NCBI RefSeq assembly: GCF_003334405.1
Contig: NZ_QOWM01000001.1
Direction: 5' to 3' (one strand)
Origin: Escherichia coli
Lineage (GTDB): Bacteria; Pseudomonadota; Gammaproteobacteria; Enterobacterales; Enterobacteriaceae
DNA: 64,000 nt
The notes below the pieces were generated by a model. The model was given only the letters and a program-made list of their open reading frames with translations. It was not told the origin of the DNA and ran no database searches. Within the stretch, counting starts at the first letter, position 1; each line of letters begins with the position of its first letter. Shown piece by piece: positions 31,718 to 31,900 of this stretch. The position numbers were made by a program, and so were the translations under genes.

Positions 31718-31900
31718 AGCCGTTGCCTGATGCGACGCGTAATGCGTCTTATCAGGCCTACAGTGAACAGAACCGTAGGTCGGATAAGGCGTTCACGCCG
31801 CATCCGACAGCCGTTGCCTGATGCGACGCGTAATGCGTCTTATCAGGCCTACAGTGTACAGAACCCCAGGGCGGATATGGCGTTCACGCCGCATCCGACA
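31718..31900. repeat. Tandemly duplicated BIME/REP cluster downstream of trmJ
   Basis: Two ~92-bp units (31718-31809 and 31810-31900), each GCCGTTGCCTGATGCGACGCGTAATGCGTCTTATCAGGCCTACAGTG ... GCGTTCACGCCGCATCCGACA. Confidence 0.85.

Follow-up and report, generated by a model that had tools for sequence, protein, structure and literature searches.

Two families of BIME have been distinguished by Ton-Hoang et al. (PMC3333891). BIME-1 elements consist of a z1 and a y REP with a long conserved L linker, often containing an IHF site, and they are present in single copy, whereas BIME-2 elements consist of a z2 and a y REP with a short S linker and form tandem copies, the number of which varies between strains at a given locus. 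BIME-2 elements are strong gyrase sites, independent of transcription and cut mainly in their y REPs (Sutormin et al., PMC6379681). Table DS3 of the same study lists an element of E. coli K-12 located between iscR and yfhQ (trmJ) as 'BIMEs2 2662088-2662353, 265 bp, <iscR-<yfhQ'. It belongs to the small minority of listed BIME-2 rows with any cleavage sites: in vivo, 3 gyrase cleavage sites were recorded with ciprofloxacin (Cfx), 6 with Rif+Cfx, 0 with microcin and 4 with oxolinic acid, and the site count did not drop when transcription was blocked by rifampicin (PMC6379681).

Another closely related system is REP325/naRNA4, a BIME-2 of y and z2 REPs located between yjdM and yjdN, which is made of six 77-bp repeats with spacers (PMC4550694). 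REP325 was recently described as a partly Rho-dependent terminator which also stabilizes the upstream mRNA, with no measurable effect on nucleoid compaction; the same work indicates that REP effects vary with their context and that half-lives are not prolonged uniformly by terminal REPs (bioRxiv 10.64898/2026.03.23.713779). In addition, REPs located within 15 nt of a stop codon stall terminating ribosomes, according to the summary of Liang et al. 2015 given in PMC12306157.

Here we describe the repeat that follows trmJ in a 64,000-nt stretch of E. coli DNA, hereafter the window. This repeat is an ordinary, already catalogued element at a published locus: gyrase cleavage at the K-12 trmJ locus, like REP/BIME elements in general and the variation of their copy number from strain to strain, has been reported before. 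With high confidence, we explain it as the two-unit allele of this known polymorphic E. coli BIME-2 locus, with the probable DNA- and RNA-level roles discussed below.

A tandem BIME-2 between trmJ and iscR

Tandem Repeats Finder, applied to the window, detected a single long-period array at 31716-31900, with a period of 91, 2.0 copies, 94% matches and a score of 335. A repeat search gave 95% identity between the two copies, called here unit A and unit B, and they differ by 5 mismatches out of 91, at unit positions 51, 60, 61, 65 and 72. The array shares its first base with the end of the trmJ stop codon; the first REP stem opens 8 nt after this codon. From the end of the array, about 175-176 nt remain before the ATG of iscR at 32077, in a trmJ-iscR spacer of 360 nt. 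The element is thus extragenic, with the trmJ stop on one side and the iscR start on the other, and it takes up the room from the trmJ stop to the iscR promoter region. The original prediction had placed two units of ~92 bp in direct tandem after trmJ, at 31718-31809 and 31810-31900. The tandem and its position directly 3' of trmJ are correct; the period is 91, and the proposed boundaries cover the same array in a register that is off by 2-3 nt.

The gene names used in that prediction, trmJ, glyA and pepB, are also correct. The trmJ ORF (30976..31716, + strand) encodes a protein that matches the NCBIfam TrmJ equivalog with 525.8 bits for a cut-off of 280. Like TrmJ, the IscR, PepB and SseB proteins score above the cut-offs of NCBIfam equivalog models, and GlyA above that of the NCBIfam serine hydroxymethyltransferase subfamily model. 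The RefSeq annotation of identical DNA agrees with the names trmJ, glyA, pepB and iscR.

Each unit contains two REP palindromes, as had been proposed. Their positions, together with those of the linkers and of the two other BIMEs of the window, are given in Table 1.

Table 1. Positions of the BIME features in the window
Feature	Position	Strand	Basis or composition
BIME-1 after glyA	10085..10182	+	y iREP 10085-10118 (34/34), L linker 10119-10153, z1 REP 10154-10182 (29/29)
trmJ stop codon TAA	31714..31716	+	ORF, NCBIfam TrmJ equivalog, RefSeq
BIME-2 unit A, 91 bp	31716..31806	+	tandem-repeat and repeat searches
z2 REP no. 1, iREP orientation, CTAC end	31725..31761	+	Rfam naRNA4 alignment to z2 half
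S-type internal linker, 13 nt, CTAC to GTAG	31762..31774	+	sequence; definition in PMC3333891
y REP no. 1, REP orientation, 5' GTAG intact	31775..31808	+	32/34 y consensus
Rfam naRNA4 (RF02564) match over the unit junction: y no. 1, linker and z2 no. 2	31778..31849	+	72.2 bits
BIME-2 unit B, 91 bp, differing from A at 5 positions	31807..31897	+	repeat search, allele comparison
Inter-unit linker AGCCGTT, 7 nt	31809..31815	+	6-nt deletion in Rfam alignment
z2 REP no. 2, same sequence as no. 1	31816..31852	+	sequence, fold
y REP no. 2, degenerate	31866..31899	+	29/34 y consensus
BIME-1 after pepB	39142..39238	+	y iREP 39142-39175 (33/34), L linker 39176-39209, z1 REP 39210-39238 (29/29)

The whole window was scanned by ungapped scoring against the y and z1 consensus sequences, with a match of at least 72%. 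About 7 distinct REP sites were obtained (10 scoring rows, since y scores on both strands), compared with a mean of 0.02 matches in mononucleotide shuffles. Such an ungapped scan is blind to z2, which it misses by a 1-nt indel in the loop, and the identity of the z2 REPs therefore rests on the Rfam alignment. The GTAG/CTAC tetranucleotide is kept at three of the four REPs, both z2 copies and the first y; y no. 2 has CCAG instead, and the stem of this last REP has a foot weakened by a mismatch and a reduced internal mismatch.

As RNA, the z2 hairpins have a folding energy of -22.3 kcal/mol (z = -5.96 relative to shuffled controls) and the hairpin of y no. 1 of -18.8 kcal/mol (z = -5.08). With -14.9 kcal/mol and z = -1.87, y no. 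2 is the sole REP that does not lie well below its shuffled controls. Folded as one piece, the trmJ 3' UTR reaches -98.6 kcal/mol (z = -6.6). We also observed that, in the minimum-energy fold of 31705-31935, the two identical z2 copies pair together around y no. 1 and no local z2 hairpins are formed; this alternative pairing is possible only with at least two units.

These data identify the trmJ element as a BIME-2, i.e. a z2 REP, a 13-nt linker and an inverse y REP in tandem. The y/z2 composition is given by the naRNA4 alignment and by the scores of the two y REPs, and the REPs are inverse, with an S linker running from the CTAC of z2 to the GTAG of y. The copies are in tandem and variable by strain (two here, one to four in other E. 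coli), and the location is extragenic. The loss of GTAG in the last y REP is the one departure from the BIME-2 sequence definition. In the interval 31716-31900, neither a z1 match nor a match to the IHF consensus with at most one mismatch was found, which does not correspond to a BIME-1. The alignment to REP/BIME consensus families that the original prediction had proposed as a check, done by consensus scan and Rfam, thus yielded membership in the y and z2 families.

The Rfam match deserves a comment. RF02564 (naRNA4) aligns over its full model (1-77) with a score above the gathering score of 59.5, and other registers and the opposite strand reach 28-38 bits. Compared with the 'l' linker of naRNA4/REP325, the one between y and z2 here lacks 6 nt. 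In effect, RF02564 models the y-linker-z2 junction of a BIME-2; the match is therefore a family label of the repeat and does not constitute evidence for a separate sRNA gene, and annotation should treat it as a BIME-2 junction. The trmJ element and REP325 both consist of tandem units whose y and z2 REPs alternate in orientation, and both lie in the 3' UTR of a gene that is followed by another one on the same strand. They differ in their number and length of repeats (two 91-bp units after trmJ instead of six 77-bp repeats with spacers), in the linker and in their loci, which are unrelated (PMC4550694).

Beside this match, a second, sub-threshold one to naRNA4 (35.3 bits) was observed at 31869-31932. 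It comprises y no. 2 and, at the position of z2, a weak GCCA...TGGC hairpin (31913-31931) which could be a decayed REP remnant or a chance occurrence.

Alleles of the trmJ 3' flank in E. coli and in other species

A search with the flanks of the element matched all 5,426 complete E. coli genomes. Unit numbers were derived from the coverage classes of three BLAST searches and from systematic 60-row samples, and they are accurate within a few percent; the samples agree with the derived proportions. We estimate that about 46% of these genomes carry one unit and about 15%, or roughly 800 genomes, carry two units. At least three units are present in about 12.5%: the two-unit query is interrupted in ~680 genomes (5,426 minus 4,746), a figure consistent with the 673 records recovered at 99% identity or more with a three-unit query. 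In 1,433 of the 5,426 genomes (26%), a BoxC/TMECO repeat takes the place of the BIME. Counted by unit type, A/B-type units in any number are found in 1,562 genomes, of which ~90 have B alone, and the remaining ~2,431 genomes have one diverged unit.

The alleles encountered were B alone (XYEH3314), A-B (the window), A'-B (an O9:H10 strain), A-A-B (K-12, including MG1655), A-A-A-B (B19374) and one diverged unit (ST131, D7 and PE164). In the multi-unit alleles seen, unit B is always the last one and the extra units repeat A without a change. The K-12 element is among the closest known relatives of the one described here: the locus is orthologous, the flanks and the A and B units are identical, the order is z2-S-y and the start lies 8 nt after the trmJ stop. 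It differs by its three units and its 451-nt spacer, compared with two units and 360 nt in the window. The RefSeq feature table of this MG1655 stretch contains no repeat_region feature, and the listing of the K-12 element rests on the BIME table of PMC6379681.

Copy number thus varies from one to four units in E. coli; a comparison of related genomes had been proposed as a check of such variation. The reading of the array as a recent tandem duplication private to this strain does not stand. With 5 of the 91 positions differing between A and B, A-B is one state of an old copy-number polymorphism and no fresh duplication. Judging from the alleles, the recent events would be changes in the number of A copies. 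Such changes would most likely occur by slippage on the 91-bp repeats or by unequal recombination between them; the extra unit of K-12 is an exact A.

The BoxC allele, found in O157:H7, WCHEC020031 and many others, occupies exactly the same slot, from the trmJ stop codon to ACAACAGGTACAAACGCC. In WCHEC020031, it is an insert of ~120 bp (715-835 of the stretch compared, for a slot at 31712-31900 of the window), unrelated to the BIME-2 in sequence and predicted structure and absent from the window. Its 35-nt core matches exactly the published consensus of BoxC/TMECO, CCCTCNCCC-N3-6-GGGNGAGGG-N3-GGGNGAGGG (PMC4666352), a family of intrastrand-triplex repeats also called PIT, and a search of this allele against Rfam gave nothing meaningful. 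With the insert, TrmJ loses its last residue, its end changing from ...KAE* to ...KA*.

In the single units of ST131, D7 and PE164, the y stem shows two compensating substitutions, at unit positions 75 and 82 (31790 and 31797 of the window), which turn GGCG/CGCC into GGTG/CACC and leave the hairpin intact. This suggests that the y hairpin itself may be maintained, from a single event that hairpin-templated repair could also have produced.

We extended the comparison to other species by a pattern scan with the iscR start in a collection of species-representative genomes, which gave 120 loci, of which 36 were examined. In these 36 loci, iscR is preceded by trmJ, on the same strand. E. albertii possesses a single orthologous z2-y unit, which is absent from the other genera. 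REP pairs of their own species type occupy the 3' flank of trmJ in C. youngae, E. asburiae, P. vulneris and Escherichia sp. ESNIH1, and Pseudocitrobacter has two inverted BoxC-like repeats. In C. werkmanii, the spacer is a bare 107 nt and trmJ ends right at the IscR-binding region. Downstream, the IscR-binding and promoter region stays conserved across species. Since different repeats fill the slot in different species, the 3' flank of trmJ is a recurrent landing site for repeats, occupied independently across genera. No BIME-specific role at this slot is essential, because the BIME is absent from a quarter of the E. coli genomes and nothing occupies the site in C. werkmanii.

Possible roles on DNA and RNA, and competing explanations

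Gyrase, IHF and Pol I had been named as binding partners of REP/BIME elements. Such partners are known at the level of the family and differ between its subfamilies. Gyrase is documented for BIME-2 elements and for the K-12 locus itself; an IHF site is a feature of the BIME-1 L linker and, as indicated above, none was detected in the array. By analogy with K-12, whose gyrase data come from the three-unit allele, the two-unit allele is likely a gyrase site on DNA. Having lost GTAG and part of its stem, y no. 2 may have a reduced activity.

On RNA, a terminator scan of the + strand from 31716 to 32077 detected no intrinsic terminator. The BIME is therefore the only strong structure between trmJ and iscR, and the trmJ transcript must meet its four hairpins. 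Extrapolating from other REPs, these hairpins would probably form a 3'-UTR barrier, shielding the trmJ mRNA from 3'-to-5' exonucleases, and would probably also stop part of the read-through into iscRSUA. By the distance of its first stem to the trmJ stop codon, the element would belong to the class of REPs reported to hinder terminating ribosomes and to lower the output of the upstream gene. Searching the literature for trmJ, iscR and REP together returned nothing relevant, and neither the 2026 REP325 preprint nor the RepRanger paper mentions trmJ or iscR.

A bolder proposal, which we consider unlikely, is that the allele present at the slot (one to four BIME-2 units, or BoxC) acts as a strain-specific dial which would set trmJ read-through into iscRSUA, the amount of TrmJ and the gyrase held upstream of the iscR promoter. 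If this were true, natural E. coli lineages would differ in the regulation of Fe-S clusters with no change in promoter or coding sequence. In any case, the allele frequencies at this slot offer a natural series for testing REPs as 3'-UTR dials.

The most serious competing explanation is that the array is neutral, selfish DNA: REPs would spread via the REP-associated transposase TnpA_REP into tolerant 3' flanks, and their copy number would drift while trmJ and iscR remain unaffected. We regard it as possible, although clearly less probable than the preferred one, with which it overlaps and which it does not exclude. The many ways in which the slot is filled, from one to four units to BoxC, species-specific REP pairs or, in C. 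werkmanii, nothing, agree well with neutrality, as does the decay of the last y REP. On the other hand, gyrase cleaves the K-12 element in vivo (PMC6379681), the compensatory substitution preserves the y stem (with the reservation made above about hairpin-templated repair), and family-level experiments have found measurable effects of BIME-2 elements on neighbouring genes (bioRxiv 10.64898/2026.03.23.713779).

Another explanation is that the locus produces a nucleoid-associated sRNA of the naRNA4/CssrE type which, with HU, would bridge cruciform DNA. The score of 72.2 bits against RF02564 lies on the strand transcribed from trmJ, and the complete y-to-z2 module exists only thanks to the presence of two units. 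However, any multi-unit BIME-2 in such an orientation should score against what is a model of the BIME-2 junction, the linker is shorter than in naRNA4, no separate promoter was found, and the nucleoid role of this RNA is itself disputed (bioRxiv 10.64898/2026.03.23.713779). We therefore judge such an sRNA very unlikely.

Equally improbable in our opinion is that the element serves as an intrinsic, Rho-independent terminator of trmJ. Strong GC-rich hairpins do stand directly past the stop codon, but none of the four stems is followed by a T-run, the scan mentioned above found no site on the + strand, and the attenuation reported for BIMEs is partial and linked to Rho; this candidate was rejected. 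Lastly, a recent duplication private to this strain, or an artefact of assembly, which the head-to-tail copies with their exact 91-bp spacing could evoke, has a negligible probability: fresh copies would be identical, like the A-A pair of K-12, instead of differing at five positions, roughly 800 genomes have the two-unit state, and the artefact was rejected on the basis of 1,001 bp, including the repeat, that are 100% identical in independent complete genomes.

The BIMEs after glyA and pepB, and other features of the window

The BIMEs which follow glyA and pepB had been described as sister copies of the trmJ unit. They are in fact members of a different family, BIME-1, each made of a y REP, an L linker and a z1 REP in single copy. 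They have in common with the trmJ element two inverse REPs, one of which is y, and a position at the 3' flank of a gene. They differ from it by z1 in place of z2, by their single copy and by a conserved L linker of 34-35 nt containing an IHF-like site (BIME-1, or RIB/RIP elements; PMC3333891); the y REP, the only part shared, is in the opposite orientation. A single family for the trmJ, glyA and pepB elements was thus rejected, z1 and a 34-35-nt L linker being opposed to z2 and a 13-nt S linker, and the three BIMEs of the window should be annotated in two families.

The element after glyA begins 39 nt past the glyA stop and has an L linker of 35 nt. The two elements (10084-10184 and 39140-39243 in the original prediction) had been considered as near-identical; they are indeed similar, with 89% identity overall, the REP arms being 97-100% identical and the linker about 70%. 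At the same spot of the two linkers, IHF-like sites with one mismatch are present at 10131-10143 (glyA) and 39187-39199 (pepB). As the window contains 63 matches to the IHF consensus at this stringency for 46 expected by chance, they lend weak support to the BIME-1 assignment and do not prove it. The element after pepB, whose L linker is 34 nt long, begins 8 nt past the pepB stop (39131-39175), which also places it in the class of REPs within 15 nt of a stop codon. A lone y REP was observed at 20490-20523, with 31/34 of the consensus and AAAT in place of GTAG.

Three open reading frames had been attributed to these repeats, all said to contain RRERLIRPT. Their coordinates are right and the motif is present in 10054..10257 and 31183..31803 (- strand); in 39147..39491 it reads RRKRLIRPT because of a G-to-A difference in the y loop. 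RRERLIRPT is the y REP translated in one frame. The ORF 31183..31803 (-) crosses trmJ in antisense, and 39147..39491 shares part of its length with sseB in another frame. That such ORFs are spurious is well founded, as they are by-products of the translation of a conserved palindrome, and they should be ignored in annotation. We noticed a fourth REP-seeded ORF, 31793..31933 (-), which contains RRERHIRPG.

Among the other Rfam matches, GlmY (2959-3106), the iscRS stability element (32566-32675) and sroE (53522-53613) score above their gathering scores. Finally, at 40050-40852, ryfA (40050-40353, - strand) and IS128 (40485-40693, - strand) lie within a direct tandem duplication of ~322-326 bp, with 84-90% identity for the repeat families D2 and D5 and a terminator-like hairpin at the end of each copy.
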